The notes beneath the pieces are model-generated. The model saw nothing but the letters and a program-made list of their open reading frames with translations, was not told the origin of the DNA and searched no databases. Source: a virus (taxonomy: Duplodnaviria; Heunggongvirae; Uroviricota; Caudoviricetes). From it: DNA of 36,228 nucleotides. Position numbers and translations under genes: made by a program. Shown piece by piece: positions 6,844 to 18,412 of this stretch. Position 1 is the stretch's first letter. Every line of letters begins with the position of its first letter. The stretch lies in the IMG/VR virus record IMGVR_UViG_2778261451_000006; one strand, 5' to 3'.

Positions 6844-7536
6844 TTAATTATGTCTCTTAAGGGTTTGCGACTGACTGATTAAGACCTTTCCAAAGACCAT
6901 GAATCGGTGTTCGTTTTCGCTAGTAATTCCCCATTCACGGTAAATCTGGTTATCAGAAATCACCAGCAGTTTGTCAGGAATCATTTGAAGTCTTTTAACG
7001 TATATTTTGTCATCAAAACCAAAGACATATATACCATCACCATCAAACTGATTGATGCTGACATCAACGAAGATGAGATCTCCTGGCTCAATGGTTGGAC
7101 ACATACTGTCCCCACGAACGTTGATAACTTTGATGTGATTGGCTGGTCGTCCGCCGAACATTGATACAGCATTATCAGTTCTGTATTCGATGGCATGAAT
7201 CACATCAATGACATCACCGCCCTGGATAAGGCCATTTCCCGCACTGGCACTGATATCCAGCATTTCAATACGGAACACATCCTTCACCTGCGCAACATCC
7301 TCATTATTACTGTTTTTATATACAGTATTACTTTTGTGGGCAGAGGTAAAGAGATCAGCAATATCAACACCTAAGCTCTTGGCAATATTATTCAGTGTTT
7401 GTTCGGTAAATTGTTTTTGCTTACCCGTTTCTAAGCGCGAGATGTTCGCCGCATCTACTCCTATCGCTTCAGCGAGATCGGCGATTTTCATGTTCTTCGC
7501 TTGGCGAAGTTGTCTGACTCGGTTTCCTATGTTCAT
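6844..7536 (-). CDS. cI: prophage repressor, CI-like (HTH plus S24 LexA-type peptidase domain)
   Basis: 230-aa ORF; N-terminal HTH (VRQLRQAKNMKIADLAEAIGVDAANISRLETGK); C-terminal S24 signature (RGDSMCPTIEPGDLIFVD ... VKRL); divergent from a cro-like gene. Confidence 0.9.
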   Translation of the reverse strand: MNIGNRVRQLRQAKNMKIADLAEAIGVDAANISRLETGKQKQFTEQTLNNIAKSLGVDIADLFTSAHKSNTVYKNSNNEDVAQVKDVFRIEMLDISASAGNGLIQGGDVIDVIHAIEYRTDNAVSMFGGRPANHIKVINVRGDSMCPTIEPGDLIFVDVSINQFDGDGIYVFGFDDKIYVKRLQMIPDKLLVISDNQIYREWGITSENEHRFMVFGKVLISQSQTLKRHN

Positions 7537-7633
7537 GCGTTTATTACATTTCTTTATTGCGTGATAAGCAAATCAACTTGCGCAAAATAATTGCGTGAAA
7601 TAACATGCATAACGCGCAATATTTGGAGGGCGT
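7537..7633. promoter_or_regulatory. divergent promoter/operator region (OR-like) between cI and cro
   Basis: 97-bp AT-rich spacer containing TTGCGTGATAAGCAA (7557–7571), palindrome TTGCGCAA and TTGCGTGAAATAAC...GCGCAA. Confidence 0.5.
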
Positions 7634-7894
7634 ATGCAATCACCATTACGAAATGTGCGTAAGGCGCATGGTTTCACTTTGCAGCATGTTGCTGCGGGTG
7701 TTCAAGTCAATCCAGCGACGTTGAGTCGTATTGAGAGGCTGGAGCAGATTCCATCTATCGAGCTTGCAGAACGTTTAGCCAATTTTTTTAAGGGTGAAGT
7801 CAGCGAAATGCAGATTCTTTATCCGGCACGTTTTCAATCTAGCCAAAACCAGAATGGGTTTAAACCACAGGAACAGGAGGTGAACCGTGGGTAA
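7634..7894 (+). CDS. cro: Cro-like HTH regulator
   Basis: 86-aa ORF with GGAGGG upstream; HTH segment FTLQHVAAGVQVNPATLSRIE; first gene of the rightward operon. Confidence 0.7.
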   Translation: MQSPLRNVRKAHGFTLQHVAAGVQVNPATLSRIERLEQIPSIELAERLANFFKGEVSEMQILYPARFQSSQNQNGFKPQEQEVNRG

Positions 7895-12395: not shown

Positions 12396-13391
12396 GTGAC
12401 CGTGAGAGCACTACTGACCCCTGAAATTGCCCCGCGTATGGGGATCGTATTGTTCAGGCCAGGTTCAGAGCTGATGCCCCTGTTTATGCAGGGGCGTGTC
12501 CTGCTGGAGCCTGAGCCGGAACGTTATTCATCTTTCGCCAGTGGTGCCGTTCCGGCGGCATCACAACCGCTGGCGGATGATCCTGCCGTTCGGGCCGTGT
12601 TCCGCAATGAGGCAGTGATCCGTCGTGCTGGTGGCGTGGAATGTCTTGAAAGCTGGTTACTTCGTGAAAAAGGCTGCCAGTGGCCTCATTCCGACTGGCA
12701 CAGCGAGAACATGACCACAATGCGACACGCGCCGGGCGCAATCCGTCTGTGCTGGCACTGCGATAACCAGCTGCGCGATCAGTTCACGGAACGGCTGGAA
12801 TCAATGGCAACGGATAACTGTGTCCGGTGGGTGTTATCTGTCGTGCGTCGGGATCTCGGTTTTGATGACAGTCACGTTGTGACAATGCCGGAACTGTGCT
12901 GGTGGCTGATTCGTAATGATCTGGCGGATGCCTTACCGGAAAGTGCAGCCCGTAAGGCACTGAGATTACCGAAGCCTGTTGTGCCGTCTGTTACCCGGGA
13001 AAGTGACCTTGTGCCTTCGGTTCCTGCCACCAGCATCATCCAGGATAAGGCGAAAAAGGTGCTGGCGCTGAAAGTGGATCCGGAGTCGCCGGAGTCTTTT
13101 ATGTTACGCCCAAAACGTCGCCGCTGGGTTAATGAAAAGTACACGCGCTGGGTTAAGACACAGCCGTGTGCATGTTGTGGAAAGCCTGCTGATGATCCCC
13201 ACCACCTGATAGGCCACGGTCAGGGGGGAATGGGTACAAAAGCGCATGACCTCTTCGTGCTGCCTTTGTGCAGAAAGCATCACGACGAGCTGCATGCGGG
13301 TACCGTGGCATTTGAAGAGATGTATGGCTCCCAGTTGGAGCTGATATTTCGTTTTATCGATCGTGCGCTGGCAATAGGCGTACTGGCGTAA
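12396..13391 (+). CDS. DUF968-family protein with C-terminal Cys/His (HNH-like) motif
   Basis: 331-aa ORF; C-terminal CACCGKPADDPHHLIGHGQGGMGTKAHDLFVLPLCRKHHDELH; typical nin-region position before Q; start (GTG 12396) uncertain. Confidence 0.65.
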   Translation: MTVRALLTPEIAPRMGIVLFRPGSELMPLFMQGRVLLEPEPERYSSFASGAVPAASQPLADDPAVRAVFRNEAVIRRAGGVECLESWLLREKGCQWPHSDWHSENMTTMRHAPGAIRLCWHCDNQLRDQFTERLESMATDNCVRWVLSVVRRDLGFDDSHVVTMPELCWWLIRNDLADALPESAARKALRLPKPVVPSVTRESDLVPSVPATSIIQDKAKKVLALKVDPESPESFMLRPKRRRWVNEKYTRWVKTQPCACCGKPADDPHHLIGHGQGGMGTKAHDLFVLPLCRKHHDELHAGTVAFEEMYGSQLELIFRFIDRALAIGVLA

Positions 13392-13404: not shown

Positions 13405-14157
13405 ATGAACCTTGAAGCCTTACCAAAATATTACTCCCCAAAATCTCCAAAATTGAGTGATGACGCACCGGCGACAGGCTCGGGTGGTTTAACAATTACA
13501 GATGTGATGGCTGCGCAGGGGATGGTGCAGTCGAAAGCACCGCTTGGGTTTTCCTTATTCCTGGCAAAAGTTGGTGTTCAGGATCCTCAGTTTGCGATTG
13601 AAGGTCTGCTCAATTACGCGATGGCACTGGATAACCCGACATTGAACAAATTGAGTGAAGAAACCCGGCTACAGATCATTCCTTACCTTGTGAATTTTGC
13701 CTTTGCTGATTATTCCAGGTCTGCGGCAAGTAAGGCTCGCTGTGAGCATTGTGCTGGTACTGGATTTCATAATGTATTGCGCGAAGTGGTGAAACACTCC
13801 AGAAGCGGGGAGTCTGTTATCAAGGAAGAGTGGGTGAAGGAACTATGTCAGCATTGTCATGGTAAGGGAGAAGTCAGCACAGCGTGCAGAGGGTGTAAGG
13901 GTAAAGGTATTGTCCTGGATGAAAAAAGAACCCGGCTTCATGGCACGCCTGTTTATAAGATTTGTGGGCGTTGCAATGGAAACCGGTTTAGCCGTTTACC
14001 AACCACACTGGCGCGGCTTCATGTCCAGAAGCTGGTACCAGACCTGACGGATTATCAGTGGTACAAAGGATATGCAGATGTCATTGATAAACTGGTTACA
14101 AAGTGCTGGCAGGAGGAAGCTTACGCTGAAGCACAATTGAGAAGGGTGACGAGATAA
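13405..14157 (+). CDS. Q: late-gene antiterminator Q
   Basis: 250-aa ORF with multiple CxxC zinc-binding motifs (CEHCAGTG, CQHCHGKG, CRGCKGKG, CGRCNG); sits before the lysis genes. Confidence 0.8.
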   Translation: MNLEALPKYYSPKSPKLSDDAPATGSGGLTITDVMAAQGMVQSKAPLGFSLFLAKVGVQDPQFAIEGLLNYAMALDNPTLNKLSEETRLQIIPYLVNFAFADYSRSAASKARCEHCAGTGFHNVLREVVKHSRSGESVIKEEWVKELCQHCHGKGEVSTACRGCKGKGIVLDEKRTRLHGTPVYKICGRCNGNRFSRLPTTLARLHVQKLVPDLTDYQWYKGYADVIDKLVTKCWQEEAYAEAQLRRVTR

Positions 14158-14265
14158 GCGATTTTCGCCGAAGATAGCGACATAATACTTGTGTTTCTCA
14201 AAAAATATGGATAAGATTTTCTCAACGATGGGGCTTGTGTATCTATCGTTGAACAATTTTTACGA

Positions 14266-14289
14266 CCTCGCTATTGCGAGGTTTTTTTA
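14266..14289 (+). terminator. rho-independent terminator downstream of Q (tR'-like)
   Basis: Stem CCTCGC/GCGAGG with TATT loop, then TTTTTTTAT. Confidence 0.55.
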
Positions 14290-14325
14290 TGGTTTTTTTC
14301 TATTCAATCTACATCAAAATCAATG

Positions 14326-14334
14326 TGTTATAAT
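14326..14334 (+). promoter_or_regulatory. extended -10 element (TGtTATAAT)
   Basis: Perfect TATAAT with TG two bases upstream, 37 bp before the 89-aa gene; no good -35. May be a moron promoter or part of the late promoter. Confidence 0.3.
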
Positions 14335-14371
14335 GTTTTCTGTAAAACAACATTAAAGACAGGAGAACATT

Positions 14372-14641
14372 ATGAAACTGACCTCTATCCATCTTGAAAT
14401 ACTACGTCGAGTGAATGAATTGCAGCCAAAGGATTCTAGAATTCAGGCTGCATCATTACCTCATCTCTCAGCAAAAGAGGTTAATTTTGCTATTTCAGAT
14501 CTTGCTGATATAGGTTTTATCGATGTTATACGAAGCAAATCTGCCGAAGGTGGATTGATTGCTAATGAGATAACGTCAAAAGGTTTTGCTTTTTTGAGTG
14601 AGATTGGCGCTGAAAAAAATTCATCGATGAGCACTCATTGA
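14372..14641 (+). CDS. hypothetical small protein (89 aa), AT-rich moron
   Basis: ORF with AGGAGAACATT-ATG ribosome-binding site; AT-rich; perfect palindrome GGCTGCCAATTGGCAGCC follows at 14656–14673. Confidence 0.5.
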   Translation: MKLTSIHLEILRRVNELQPKDSRIQAASLPHLSAKEVNFAISDLADIGFIDVIRSKSAEGGLIANEITSKGFAFLSEIGAEKNSSMSTH

Positions 14642-14706
14642 TTTCTGCTTCAATCGGCTGCCAATTGGCAGCCTAAACTGTAAAGTGAATTTAAAATCGC
14701 CTACAA

Positions 14707-14734
14707 TTGATGCTTAAATTTTGTTCTGTATCAT
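14707..14734 (+). promoter_or_regulatory. putative sigma70 promoter (TTGATG-16 bp-TATCAT)
   Basis: Near-consensus -35/-10 hexamers with 16-bp spacer, about 100 bp upstream of the 268-aa membrane-protein gene. Confidence 0.35.
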
Positions 14735-14838
14735 CTGCAGGTTTAGGGATATCACAGTAGCTTTCTGACAAGAAGAGTTCTTTTCTTCTACCAATGAAGT
14801 GGTTATGTTAACCTGCGCCAAATCGAGACTGGTGCGGA

Positions 14839-15645
14839 GTGGAATCGAAAGTGTCATATTTTTACAGAAGCAAGAATATTTCAGGTGTTTCTATAAATGA
14901 AGATAGCTTGATTAGCTTAAGCACGGCAATTGTCGAACGCTGCGTTAAAATGAATGAGCAAGCTCAAAAGGAAAGTAGGGAAGTTTGTGCTCAATGTGTT
15001 TTTTTTATTTTGTTCGATGGTAAGGGGTATAAAGTTGATTCTATCGGTGAGCTTGTGAAATACTTTAGACAGGCCACTAGGATTGATCAAATAATTTTTA
15101 CTATTGAAACTTATCAAAGTCGACAGTCTAACAGGATGAATGGATCTTGGATGGAGCTACGAATTGATGAGAGGAATTCAAATAGCAGCACAATGATTGT
15201 AGCATCGGAAGATAATGAGTGGGTTGACTCGTTATGGATTACGATTCAGGATTTACTTAACAAGTGCAAAAATAAATTTAGATTTTTTAGAACAGCTTGG
15301 ACTATGTTAAGTATCCAGATTTCAGGTGTGACAGTTGGCTTTTTGCTTAGCTTATGGACAGCCTCAAAACTGGCGCCAAAACTATCAATCGATGGTGCAT
15401 TTGCTTTATCATTTATTTGTATCTTTATTTTGTTTTCGAACTTATGGAGCTTTGCTATTCCATTAATAATTAAGCTTATCGACTTTTTGTTTCCTAGTGT
15501 TAAGTTTGTTATTAATGGTAAAAATTACTTTCACTGGAGTGTCCAGGCTATAATTGGAGCGATTGCCAGTGCGGTTATATTGTATTTTATTAGCTCCATG
15601 TTGCTTTTTGCATTAGAAATGTTAAATAGCATCATTAAGAAATAG
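14839..15645 (+). CDS. hypothetical membrane protein: ~150-aa soluble N-terminal domain plus three predicted C-terminal TM helices
   Basis: 268-aa AT-rich ORF (start uncertain: GTG 14839 or 14851); hydrophobic segments LSIQISGVTVGFLLSLWTA, AFALSFICIFILFSNLWSFAIPLII, VQAIIGAIASAVILYFISSMLLFAL. Confidence 0.6.
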   Translation: MESKVSYFYRSKNISGVSINEDSLISLSTAIVERCVKMNEQAQKESREVCAQCVFFILFDGKGYKVDSIGELVKYFRQATRIDQIIFTIETYQSRQSNRMNGSWMELRIDERNSNSSTMIVASEDNEWVDSLWITIQDLLNKCKNKFRFFRTAWTMLSIQISGVTVGFLLSLWTASKLAPKLSIDGAFALSFICIFILFSNLWSFAIPLIIKLIDFLFPSVKFVINGKNYFHWSVQAIIGAIASAVILYFISSMLLFALEMLNSIIKK

Positions 15646-15678
15646 TTAATGAATTAGTTATAATTACATCAATTCTAT

Positions 15679-15703
15679 GGCTGCCAAATGGTGGCCTTTT
15701 TTA
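15679..15703 (+). terminator. putative terminator after the membrane-protein gene
   Basis: Stem GGCTGCC/GGTGGCC (two G-U pairs) with AAAT loop, then TTTTTTATT. Confidence 0.45.
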
Positions 15704-15753
15704 TTCCTCTCATTTCTATTTCTGAGAGGACTCACTGCAATAAGAGGTGGCTA

Positions 15754-16140
15754 ATGTCCGATCCGATTTCCGGCACAGGATTAGCTGGTGGAGCCCTAAC
15801 GGGCGCTAGTATTTATGGACTGCTGACCGGAACTGATTACGGCGTTGTTTTTGGCGCATTTGCAGGGGCTGTATTCTATATAGCAACAGCAGCAGATCTG
15901 AGTGCATCGCGCCGACTGGCATATTTTATCGTGTCATATATTGCTGGGATCCTTTGCTCTGGATTGGTTGGCTCCAAGCTGGCAAACTTGACCGGATACA
16001 GTGATAAACCTCTGGATGCTATTGGTGCCGTAATCGTCTCTGCTTTAGCCGTTAAAATCCTGACGTTCCTGAATAATCAGGATATCGGCTCGCTGGTGGC
16101 GCTCATAACGCGCCGGGGAGGTTCAGGTGGAGCTAAATGA
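15754..16140 (+). CDS. holin-like membrane protein
   Basis: 128 aa from ATG at 15754 (AGAGGTGG upstream); Gly-rich TM segments; first gene of the lysis cassette. Confidence 0.55.
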   Translation: MSDPISGTGLAGGALTGASIYGLLTGTDYGVVFGAFAGAVFYIATAADLSASRRLAYFIVSYIAGILCSGLVGSKLANLTGYSDKPLDAIGAVIVSALAVKILTFLNNQDIGSLVALITRRGGSGGAK

Positions 16141-16408
16141 CCCGACAGCAACTATTAATGCGCTGTTATGTGCTTGTGTTGTTATTACTCTGATGTTTTA
16201 TCGTCGTGGTGATTCGCGGCATCGTCCGTGGGTTTCACGTTTAGCCTGGCTGATTACTGTTACATACAGTGCTGTTCCGTTGGCCTATCTCTGTGGGATT
16301 TATCCCCATTCCTCATGGCCCATTATCGTGGCGAACACTATTTTACTTTCCGTGCTGGTGGCTGTCAGAGGCAACGTTGCACGTCTGGTTGATCATCTGA
16401 GGCACTAA
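16127..16408 (+). CDS. second holin-like / lysis-associated membrane protein
   Basis: 93-aa ORF from GTG with GGGGAGG upstream; two to three hydrophobic segments; overlaps neighbours on both sides. Confidence 0.5.
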   Translation: MELNDPTATINALLCACVVITLMFYRRGDSRHRPWVSRLAWLITVTYSAVPLAYLCGIYPHSSWPIIVANTILLSVLVAVRGNVARLVDHLRH

Positions 16409-17022
16409 TGAACCAACAATTATTTCAAAAGGCGGCTGGTATTAGCGCCGGGCTGGCTGCGCGCTGGTTTCCGCACATTGATGCGGCGATGAAGGAATTC
16501 GGCATTACAGTACCAGCGGATCAGGCAATGTTTATCGCTCAGGTAGGCCATGAGTCGATGGGGTTTAGCGCCGTAGTTGAAAATTTTAACTACACACCAT
16601 CTGCGCTTGTGGCGACGTTCGGAAAGAGGATCACACAGCAGCAGGCTGATGCCCTTGGCAGAACATCCGGACATGCAGCTCGTCAGGATGCTATTGCCAA
16701 TCTGGTGTATAGCAACCGACTGGGTAACAAAGCACCAGGTGATGGCTGGAAATATCGTGGTAGAGGATTAATTCAAATCACTGGCCTCCATAATTATCGC
16801 ATCTGTGGCGCGGCGCTGAAGTTAGATCTGGTGACTTCACCTGAACAACTGGAACAGGAGCTACAGGCCGCGCGCTCAGCTGCATGGTTCTACACCTCTA
16901 AAGGTTGCATGGTCTACGGTGCCGATATTAATCGTGTTACGCGCATCATTAACGGCGGTCTGAACGGTATTGAGGATCGTAAGGTTCGATACAACAAGGC
17001 GCGGGCGGCGCTGCTGGTATGA
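16408..17022 (+). CDS. endolysin, glycoside hydrolase family 19 (chitinase-like lysozyme)
   Basis: 204-aa ORF; GH19-type segments (FIAQVGHESMGF, WKYRGRGLIQITGLHNY, INGGLNG). Confidence 0.85.
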   Translation: MNQQLFQKAAGISAGLAARWFPHIDAAMKEFGITVPADQAMFIAQVGHESMGFSAVVENFNYTPSALVATFGKRITQQQADALGRTSGHAARQDAIANLVYSNRLGNKAPGDGWKYRGRGLIQITGLHNYRICGAALKLDLVTSPEQLEQELQAARSAAWFYTSKGCMVYGADINRVTRIINGGLNGIEDRKVRYNKARAALLV

Positions 17023-17411
17023 AGATGAGTTATTGGGCGCTTATTTTAACGTTTATTGCTTGTATTGCTGGTGGTCTTGTCTGGTCAGCGAATCACTACC
17101 ACGGAAAGTTTCTGGAGGAGCAGAAGCGTGCTGACGCTGCGGAACAGCGAGCTGATTCTACTGAGGCTATCACCGCGAATGTTCTGCGTACTATGGCAAT
17201 AACGAACATCATTCAGGAGGCGAATCAACATGCAAAACAGCAGATCGCACTGGAGTCACAGAGAACCCAGGAAGATATCAAAGTGGCTGTTGCGGATGAT
17301 GATTGTGCTCTACGCCCTGTGCCTGCTGCCGCTGCTGACCGGTTGCGCCGGTACGCGGACAGTTTACGTGCCAGTTCCGGTGATACCACTACCGGCGAAC
17401 CTGACCGCTGA
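17019..17411 (+). CDS. i-spanin (Rz-like)
   Basis: 130-aa ORF; N-terminal TM anchor (YWALILTFIACIAGGLVW) then charged coiled-coil-like region; overlaps the endolysin stop. Confidence 0.7.
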   Translation: MKMSYWALILTFIACIAGGLVWSANHYHGKFLEEQKRADAAEQRADSTEAITANVLRTMAITNIIQEANQHAKQQIALESQRTQEDIKVAVADDDCALRPVPAAAADRLRRYADSLRASSGDTTTGEPDR

Positions 17412-17601
17412 AACCCCGCAACCGGTTATTCCTGATCCATTGACCTACGGTGGAAGCTTGGATTTGAATGTGAGTCTGTTGTCGGCTCTGGCTGCCTGTA
17501 ATAGTGATAAAGCTGATATTCGTAAAATTGAGGCAGAGAGGAGCTGGCCATTAAGCTGTAAAGCGGAAAGACCGCAGCAAGTAGTGTCAATGCAGCAGTA
17601 A
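17296..17601 (+). CDS. o-spanin (Rz1-like lipoprotein), overlapping the i-spanin in another frame
   Basis: ATG-ATG at 17296; lipobox LLTGC; Pro-rich mature region; unusually long at 101 aa. Confidence 0.5.
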   Translation: MMIVLYALCLLPLLTGCAGTRTVYVPVPVIPLPANLTAETPQPVIPDPLTYGGSLDLNVSLLSALAACNSDKADIRKIEAERSWPLSCKAERPQQVVSMQQ

Positions 17602-17871
17602 TGACGCTGCCCCGAATACTCAAAGTTGCTGGTAGCCAGTTTCAGGTAAAAAGCTGAGAGCGCACTGGTGAGGGTTAACGGGAAGAAGCGCACCGGTGCT
17701 CTAGGCTGATAGCCAGTCAGCTTCCGGTTAGTTATGAGGGATTCACGAGATACCCCTGACACATGGTCTCAAGGGCATGATCGCGGCCATTGCGAAAGTG
17801 TGGATGCAGAAAATAATGAAAAGCAGCTCAATATGAGCCGCTTTGATTTTCCGCTCTTGTTGAAATGAAAG

Positions 17872-18153
17872 TTAGCTACCTGACCCCATTCTGTAAGTCA
17901 TAGTCACAAAACCAGGCTTTTCAGGGTCAGCGCTTATTGTTGTCTGGATATTATGAGATGAAATCTCAGAGGATCCGTTTTTTTGGGTAATAGTGATATG
18001 GCTACCATTTTCATACTCAAAGTACTTAACGGTATTTCCATTAACTACAGACTCTTCAGCTTTAACTAAGCCTTTATCATCAATGGTGATCTTGGAAATT
18101 TCTTCCTCAACCTTCATTTCACCACTTTTTGCATCAAATTGAATTTTTGGCAT
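17872..18153 (-). CDS. hypothetical protein (93 aa), reverse-oriented AT-rich orphan gene
   Basis: ATG at 18153 with GGGAGAAG about 8 nt upstream; Lys/Glu/Ser/Thr-rich; opposite strand to the late operon. Confidence 0.45.
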   Translation of the reverse strand: MPKIQFDAKSGEMKVEEEISKITIDDKGLVKAEESVVNGNTVKYFEYENGSHITITQKNGSSEISSHNIQTTISADPEKPGFVTMTYRMGSGS

Positions 18154-18412
18154 GTTTTCTTCTCCCAAGAATTGAGTATTTTCTTATACCACAAAATACT
18201 CATGCTAAACACAGTAACCTACTGGAAGCCGTAGTTTGGTGATGGGTATATATATAATGATGGGTTAAAAACCTGGTCTGATGAGGGAAAACAAATTGTG
18301 CGTAATCGCCTAAAACCAAGCTGACACCGAATCGGATTCAAGTTCAGTACTGGCCATCACACTCAATTCAAGCTACTAGAATTCGCTAGCGTTTATTTAT
18401 TTTGGAACACCC

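Follow-up and report, generated by a model that had tools for sequence, protein, structure and literature searches.

A foreign cargo insert between Q and the holins of a lambdoid Escherichia coli prophage carries genes for a small winged-helix protein and for a membrane protein from an undescribed family with a possible role in phage conflict

The stx genes of Stx phages lie in the junction between the antiterminator gene Q and the lysis genes, and bor and lom of phage lambda and gp15 of HK97 are morons located elsewhere in the genome. For P2-like phages, the gpA-gpQ interval is described as a hotspot of anti-phage systems in the passages of the source considered here (Rousset et al, 2022; PMC9122126). 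We analyzed a cargo insert found at the Q-to-lysis junction of a 36,228-nt stretch of viral DNA (IMG/VR record IMGVR_UViG_2778261451_000006; the whole stretch is called the window hereafter), which is a lambdoid E. coli prophage. The insert carries two genes, one for a small protein of 89 amino acids (aa) and one for a larger membrane protein (Table 1). What is new here is the family of the membrane protein, which is described neither in Pfam, NCBIfam, PADLOC or the PDB nor in the searchable literature, the prophage moron being already well known as a type of element.

With a GC content of 0.352, the insert ranks lowest among the 1.4-kb stretches of the window, at z -3.9 when the baseline is taken from non-overlapping windows of the insert size (mean 0.526, sd 0.045, minimum 0.404). 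The GC content at third codon positions is 0.26 for the 89-aa gene and 0.35 for the membrane-protein gene, whereas Q, the holins and the endolysin have values of 0.43-0.57. An original prediction, made from the letters alone, had described an AT-rich cassette lodged as cargo between Q and the lysis genes, and both parts of this description hold: Q (PF03589) lies to the left, and two holins and a GH19 endolysin lie to the right. The RefSeq annotation of an identical prophage has the same gene order and lists the two insert genes as hypothetical proteins (WP_000779379 and WP_001459463). The edges of the insert were placed by alignment against prophages that have the same Q and different cargo. 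On the left, homology spans Q and ~130 nt beyond it, including the promoter-like site at 14189-14217 and a hairpin with a T-run, and ends right after the T-run; it breaks at ~14290 and 15716 and resumes at ~15717-15721 in cargo-free or differently loaded prophages. The hairpin, which the original prediction did not list among its signals, keeps its position among prophages with the same Q and differs in its stem (CCTCGC/GCGAGG versus CCCGCC/GGCGGG). Together, the pR'-like site and the tR'-like hairpin parallel the annotated P late/tR' arrangement of P22. Since the insert lies downstream of tR', a Q-modified polymerase must traverse it to reach the holins.

The contents of this slot vary among related prophages: the same Q and holins enclose an 85-aa gene in strain FORC_082, and in strain 1532MA the slot holds two genes, for 141 and 67 aa, together with a DNA methyltransferase gene. 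It is on account of this variation that we consider the Q-holin slot a cargo hotspot. Of 5426 complete E. coli genomes, 2522 contain Q of this type (DNA identity of at least 90%), and only 41 the insert. Overall, these data indicate that positions 14290-15716 are horizontally acquired, moron-type cargo in a variable slot that runs from the Q-dependent late promoter and terminator to the holin.

The larger open reading frame (ORF) had been read as a 268-aa protein starting at 14839. The ORF is real and this start was wrong, the true one being the GTG at 14851: the NCBI PGAP annotation begins there, this GTG coincides in the alignment with the ATG of a homologue of 52% identity, and distant homologues begin at the aligned position, which gives a protein of 264 aa. 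Residues 1-37, located outside the 231-aa PHROG model, are conserved down to 39% identity. AlphaFold2 (AF2) models the ~145 N-terminal residues as a domain with the order beta-alpha-beta-beta-alpha-beta-alpha-beta-beta-alpha, at predicted local distance difference test (pLDDT) values of 88-91. The C-terminal part consists, by hydropathy and AF2, of three long hydrophobic helices at residues ~148-172, 183-210 and 229-257, so that the soluble N-domain followed by three helices expected from the letters alone is recovered by both approaches. A cluster of lysine and arginine residues before the first helix (KCKNKFRFFR) and the hydropathy fit a topology with the N-terminus inside. Near-invariant positions of the family are R6, D7, R54, D56, K58, G59, A75, W124, Q156, F188, S196, N197, W199, P215 and F219.

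No described family accommodates either insert protein. Scans of Pfam, PHROGs, NCBIfam and PADLOC returned only PHROGs of unknown function and sub-threshold winged-helix matches: the sole PHROG match of the membrane protein is phrog_30208, an entry without function, PADLOC-DB 2.0.0 gives no family for either protein at E up to 10, and the NCBIfam scan was also empty. In Pfam, the membrane protein has no match and 110 family members give only scattered single matches, none of them meaningful; a profile of the same 110 members searched against the PDB found nothing meaningful (best E 0.5). The membrane protein matches no holin, antiholin or spanin family in Pfam or PHROGs, and neither do the 110 members in Pfam; no homology to a lysis accessory or structural function was found, such homology being a condition under which the original prediction was to be given up. 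Neither WP_000779379 nor WP_001459463 was found in the searchable literature or in the DefensePredictor supplements, a search that did not take in the work of Brenes and Laub in 2025, who reportedly screened E. coli prophages for defence systems.

With HMMER, an exhaustive search across 1.84 billion representatives recovered 230 clusters (at 50% identity) of the membrane protein with E up to 1e-3, 127 of which reach E up to 1e-30. Full-length members have 245-290 aa and one common architecture. In a set of 185,579 species represented by one genome each, we found 32 family loci, a count obtained with a narrower alignment pattern that recovers only part of the family; they belong to Gamma-, Beta- and Deltaproteobacteria, Bacteroidota, Balneolaceae, Nitrospirota and Verrucomicrobiota. 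Within E. coli, the gene is present in 0.76% of the genomes (41 of 5426). The membrane protein represents a widespread, unannotated family that spans several phyla and is encoded almost always by a solitary gene.

All enterobacterial relatives (52-79% identity) reside in lambdoid phages, immediately 5' of the holin. Referring to family loci by number, the gene directly precedes the holin in L003, L025 and L080, which have another Q family (PF06323), and in L007 and L008, where Q belongs to PF06530 and the holin to PF04971. On the viral contig L079, a member with 32% identity stands alone between a Q-like gene (phrog_753) and the same holin class, and the Q-holin placement recurs in this way in four lambdoid backgrounds. 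In these enterobacterial relatives, the family gene usually lies 3' of an N6_N4 DNA methyltransferase gene and never 3' of the 89-aa gene. The methyltransferase is found 59-208 nt upstream in L003 (4886-5941), L008 (2541-3614), L080 (3760-4806) and L083 (936-1973). In L060, an E. coli prophage that lacks the family gene, the methyltransferase gene abuts the holin directly; the family gene thus looks like an insertion between methyltransferase and holin. A different setting is seen in L078, a P2-like phage in which a 31%-identical member lies between a gpA-like nickase gene and the Ogr and portal genes, far from the lysis genes. There, a 258-aa ORF (6884-7660) comes after the family gene; its product has a hydrophobic segment at the N-terminus and matches no PHROG, and it may be further cargo.

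Beyond the methyltransferase of enterobacterial phages, no conserved neighbour emerged in 40 loci from an all-against-all BLAST of the surrounding ORFs, and in most loci gaps of 50-500 nt separate the gene from both neighbours. A cluster of ABC ATPases considered as a conserved partner proved to consist of unrelated paralogues, and a helix-turn-helix partner upstream of the gene was not found in the distant loci. Among non-phage members, the one in L011 has genes for GmrSD_N/NsnA, HEPN and TumE-MarR proteins as neighbours, and the one in L013 a SocA_Panacea gene; in these two loci together with 28 genome-derived ones, neighbours include components of restriction-modification, SoFic, MADS and Hma systems. 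In L029, from a metagenome-assembled genome of Gallionella, the gene just 5' of the family member (7500-7886) encodes an 'integron cassette protein' (PF21648, E 5e-40) and stands in a run of small genes on the same strand. When the idea of integron cassettes was considered, attC sites, sought with a crude regular expression for R''/R', gave a lone match 3' of the gene in L043 and none beside the other family genes.

The 89-aa ORF is likewise real, as had been proposed, and is preceded by an AGGAG Shine-Dalgarno sequence. Its AF2 model, from an alignment that includes relatives in Klebsiella phages, has a mean pLDDT of 80.6 and consists of helices at residues 5-17, 34-47 and 69-84 with a beta hairpin at 50-67. 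Almost all of the top 50 Foldseek hits in the PDB are winged helix-turn-helix regulators of the MarR, HxlR or PadR type (probability 0.95-1.0; query-normalised TM score 0.52-0.69). A profile search of the PDB ranks MarR proteins first at E 0.06-1. In Pfam, the best indication is DUF2513, below the gathering threshold (21.8 bits, E 2.4e-4, versus a cut-off of 29.6) and matched by 7 of 9 relatives, all of them sub-threshold; the PHROG match is phrog_32916, and the sole paper naming DUF2513 in the searchable literature is irrelevant. The protein shares the fold of MarR, HxlR, PadR and DUF2513, its own pattern being a helix, G-[FY]-I, a beta hairpin and K-G. However, MarR proteins have 140-150 aa with N- and C-terminal dimerisation helices, which the 89-aa protein lacks. 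On these models, it is a minimal winged-helix protein that most likely binds DNA. A search of 5.8 billion proteins returned near-identical copies only, and tblastn added 79-aa relatives with 37-39% identity in the Klebsiella phages ST405-OXA48phi1.2 and vB_VIPKPNMC05, where the gene stands alone between a Q-like gene and the holin.

The original prediction had joined the two genes in one module, and this view finds no support. Relatives of the membrane gene (31-79% identity) occur without the 89-aa gene, the Klebsiella phages carry the small gene alone, and across other prophages the pair is seen in one E. coli lineage only, the genes being separate outside E. coli. Among 5426 E. coli genomes, a single copy of each gene occurs in 41, which are the same for both genes, with at least 99% identity; since these form a single clonal lineage, the complete co-occurrence is uninformative on functional coupling. 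The insert thus consists of two independently mobile single-gene units. Given a palindrome of operator size between the genes, the 89-aa protein may well be a local regulator of the cassette; it is not a conserved partner.

We then considered the signals inside the insert. The extended -10 element TGTTATAAT is the sole TGnTATAAT in the 36-kb window and stands 38 nt 5' of the ATG of the 89-aa gene on the correct strand; being unique and well placed, this candidate, already picked out from the letters, remains plausible at the level of consensus. The second promoter proposed at the same time, TTGATG-16-TATCAT, is discounted because six such matches occur in the region for 5.5 expected from shuffles, which is the chance level, and because the segment is not common to relatives. 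The palindrome between the genes is indeed perfect over 18 nt. As RNA, it would form a hairpin of -15.7 kcal/mol (z -3.4) with no U-tract. It was not found 5' of the membrane gene in L003, L025 or L007, nor, when the operator idea was examined, beside the Klebsiella homologues of the 89-aa protein. The terminator announced at the end of the insert, with its stem and T-run, is kept next to the membrane gene in L003 and L025, whose proteins are 78% relatives.

The palindrome matches the stem of this terminator at 15 of 18 positions, for 0.03 such matches expected by chance, and only the terminator copy accompanies the membrane gene in relatives; the resemblance may reflect a recombination joint between modules or a common protein-binding site. 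Around the start of the 89-aa gene, an inverted repeat (14325-14340/14363-14378; 16 nt, 81% complementary) can pair the -10 region with the Shine-Dalgarno sequence and the AUG. The fold of an RNA containing both arms has an energy of -14 kcal/mol (z -2.5; one shuffle in 200 attains it), and an RNA that begins after the -10 is unstructured. This suggests that the 89-aa protein would be translated from its own transcript and masked in Q read-through transcripts. Note also a 17-nt direct repeat near both ends of the insert (14318-14334, AATCAATGTGTTATAAT, and 15648-15664, AATGAATTAGTTATAAT), 14 of 17 positions being identical with TATAAT in each copy, which may be due to chance in AT-rich DNA.

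Table 1. Features of the insert and of its flanks, in window coordinates.
Feature	Coordinates	Strand	Remarks
DUF968/HNH gene	12396-13391		Upstream of Q
Q antiterminator, left flank	13405-14157	+	PF03589, E 3.5e-53; phrog_127
Candidate late promoter pR' (TTGTGT, 17-nt spacer, TAAGAT)	14189-14217	+	Consensus-level; unflagged by promoter scan; in block conserved with Q
tR'-like intrinsic terminator, left insert boundary	14264-14291	+	8-pair stem (14264-14283) and T-run
AT-rich cargo insert	14292-15715	none	Composition and alignments with prophages carrying other cargo
Candidate RNA hairpin at the start of the 89-aa gene (-10 region paired with Shine-Dalgarno sequence and AUG)	14325-14378	+	Read-through transcripts only
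Extended -10 promoter candidate for the 89-aa gene, TGTTATAAT	14326-14334	+	Consensus match only
Minimal MarR-like winged-helix protein, 89 aa (WP_000779379)	14372-14641	+	AF2 and Foldseek
Perfect 18-nt palindrome, GGCTGCCAATTGGCAGCC	14656-14673	none	Possible operator, or RNA hairpin without U-tract
Weak promoter-like match, TTGATG-16-TATCAT	14707-14734	+	9/12
Membrane protein, 264 aa (WP_001459463), undescribed family	14851-15645	+	Predicted cytoplasmic alpha/beta domain and three hydrophobic helices
Intrinsic terminator of the membrane-gene module	15679-15703	+	7-pair stem (15679-15696) and T-run
Two holin genes, right flank	15754-16140, 16127-16408	+	PF16931, E 8.5e-35; PF05449, E 3.8e-20
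GH19 endolysin	16408-17022		After the holins

The reading that we favor, tentatively and on indirect grounds, is that the insert is a moron whose membrane protein quite possibly serves conflict between phages, most likely through infection-triggered damage to the inner membrane and less likely through a block of DNA entry. The moron anatomy is deduced from the foreign composition, the cargo slot, the own terminator and the plausible own promoter. A role in phage conflict is suggested because the family is patchy, mobile and built of solitary genes, because it recurs in two different cargo hotspots of phages, of which one has no relation to lysis, and because some members lie in defence or toxin-antitoxin neighbourhoods and none of the lysis families is linked to it. 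From its location, the membrane protein would be a fair candidate for a defence function. In the lysogen, transcription would start at the extended -10 promoter, pass through both genes and end at the terminator at 15679, leaving the holin silent; during lytic growth, the Q-modified polymerase would read through the entire insert. The membrane protein would be the effector, its conserved cytoplasmic domain sensing a cue from the infecting phage. The helices, with their conserved polar residues (Q156, S196, N197, W199 and P215 among the conserved positions), would then compromise the inner membrane in a form of abortive infection or, less likely, block DNA entry as in superinfection exclusion, and the lysogen would thereby be protected from competing phages. 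The winged-helix protein would most likely act as a local transcription regulator, possibly at the 18-nt palindrome, and not as an obligate partner of the effector.

Several points weigh against a role in phage conflict. The promoters are consensus matches only, and the membrane part of the AF2 model is of low confidence (pLDDT 39-61). Many non-phage neighbours of the family are housekeeping genes (FecCD, chorismate lyase, PcnB, ABC ATPases, glutamate synthase). PADLOC models amount to 1.14 per protein (147/129) within 2.6 kb of the family gene versus 0.76 (63/83) at 4.5-8 kb, a crude near-versus-far comparison that has no genome-wide baseline and in which some matches are ABC ATPases. A tblastn search with the membrane protein gave no match in 50,697 records of isolated phages or in 72,556 plasmid records. 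Finally, a role related to lysis would also agree with the constant location of the gene beside the holin in lambdoid phages. A more far-reaching version of the phage-conflict reading strikes us as rather doubtful: the 264-aa protein would be the founder of a phylum-spanning family of single-gene anti-phage effectors, each an alpha/beta sensor with a three-helix killing or depolarising module, shuttled by temperate phages between cargo hotspots (lambdoid Q-holin, P2 gpA-portal) and defence islands, and set in this prophage by a winged-helix regulator and by a hairpin that silences translation of the regulator in late transcripts.

The position before the holin lends itself to another explanation, namely that the membrane protein, made with the holins from the late transcript, tunes holin triggering as an antiholin-like factor or in lysis timing and so benefits the phage itself. 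In four lambdoid backgrounds, which between them have two holin families, the family gene is the last one ahead of the holin, at identities down to 32%; it lies downstream of tR', hence is transcribed by Q read-through, and its product is an inner-membrane protein. We nevertheless regard a lysis modulator as distinctly improbable, as most family members are found in non-phage chromosomal contexts of several phyla and the L078 member occupies the P2-like gpA-portal hotspot, away from lysis genes. Moreover, of the 2522 E. coli genomes that have the Q type of the window, just 41 contain the gene, related prophages with the same holins do without it, a terminator separates it from the holin, and no match to a holin, antiholin or spanin family was obtained. 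A function outside defence is less easily set aside, and we see it as somewhat unlikely: the protein would be lysogenic-conversion cargo, like bor or lom, acting in host physiology (envelope stress, transport, signalling, colonisation). Against it speak the sparse and patchy distribution (32 loci in 185,579 species by the narrower pattern, 0.76% of E. coli), typical of accessory conflict genes, the occurrences in the P2 gpA-gpQ hotspot and beside HEPN, GmrSD or toxin-antitoxin genes, and the absence of a match to a transporter or sensor family. Such a function would agree with a solitary gene standing beside housekeeping genes in many environmental genomes, with an architecture conserved across Proteobacteria, Bacteroidota, Nitrospirota and Verrucomicrobiota, as for a general cellular role, and with a Q-holin slot that also carries methyltransferases. 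Toxin genes, those of Stx, are placed in this slot as well.

The two proteins could also form an obligate regulator-effector or antitoxin-toxin pair, in which a toxic membrane protein is kept in check by the winged-helix protein, through repression or neutralisation, until infection relieves this. The genes are adjacent on the same strand of the same AT-rich insert, with no U-tract terminator and a perfect, operator-sized palindrome between them, and the GTG start and distant Shine-Dalgarno sequence of the membrane gene are as for proteins made at low level. This pairing is not conserved. Relatives of the membrane gene are preceded by a methyltransferase gene, a 66-aa ORF or nothing, the small protein is solitary in Klebsiella phages, whose homologues have no adjoining palindrome, and the pairing in 41 of 41 E. 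coli genomes, at 99% identity or more, carries no independent information. L011 also has a MarR-like gene 5' of its family member, but this gene goes with TumE. We therefore hold an obligate pair to be improbable.

Other observations concern the remainder of the window. A second AT-rich island (17750-18350, GC 0.35-0.41) lies between the Rz/Rz1-like and HNH/terminase genes and contains a 98-aa ORF on the minus strand (17872-18168) without family match; it is considered a second cargo hotspot because a DUF6173 or GrlR-family gene occupies this slot in related E. coli prophages. The Rz-like ORF (17019-17411) overlaps an ORF in another frame (17230-17601), annotated in RefSeq as Rz1-like LysC, which is the usual spanin arrangement, overlapped and not fully embedded. 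A tRNA-Thr gene (CGU; 1369-1444) directly precedes a 387-aa ORF on the minus strand (1459-2622), and together they probably mark the end of the prophage that has the attachment site and the integrase gene. An Rfam search of the window found the tRNA only.

If the membrane protein proves protective, a compact single-gene system with a family of ~230 clusters and no Pfam, PADLOC or PDB relative would be added to the defence catalogue, and the lambdoid Q-holin junction would be supported as a search site for defence genes, like the P2 and P4 hotspots. If it tunes lysis or acts in host physiology instead, it still represents a sizeable family with a well-modeled cytoplasmic domain that merits a Pfam entry. 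In either case, the corrected gene start and the non-conserved pairing matter for the design of clones.

Among prophage exclusion proteins, RexB of lambda and SieA and SieB of P22 are also small membrane proteins with a soluble part and a few helices, the expression of the window protein in the lysogen being presumed. Alignment with hhalign detected no homology of the membrane protein to RexB (0.6% probability), SieA (14%, over a hydrophobic stretch only) or SieB (0.4%). RexB requires RexA, whereas the membrane gene of the window is solitary, and the Sie families are narrow, whereas that of the membrane protein extends across several phyla. The gpA-gpQ interval of P2-like phages, which harbors old, tin and other anti-phage systems according to the passages considered (PMC9122126), contains the 31%-identical member in exactly that position; the window copy lies in a lambdoid phage instead, location alone is no proof of defence, and those passages do not name the family. 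The insert proteins are unrelated to Stx, Bor, Lom and HK97 gp15, and have no match in Pfam, in PHROGs with a function or in PADLOC. In its anatomy, however, the insert resembles lambdoid morons and Q-lysis cargo: it is likewise of foreign composition, lies downstream of pR'/tR', has a terminator and a candidate promoter that belong to it, and is flanked by genes common to related phages, in a slot whose cargo varies.

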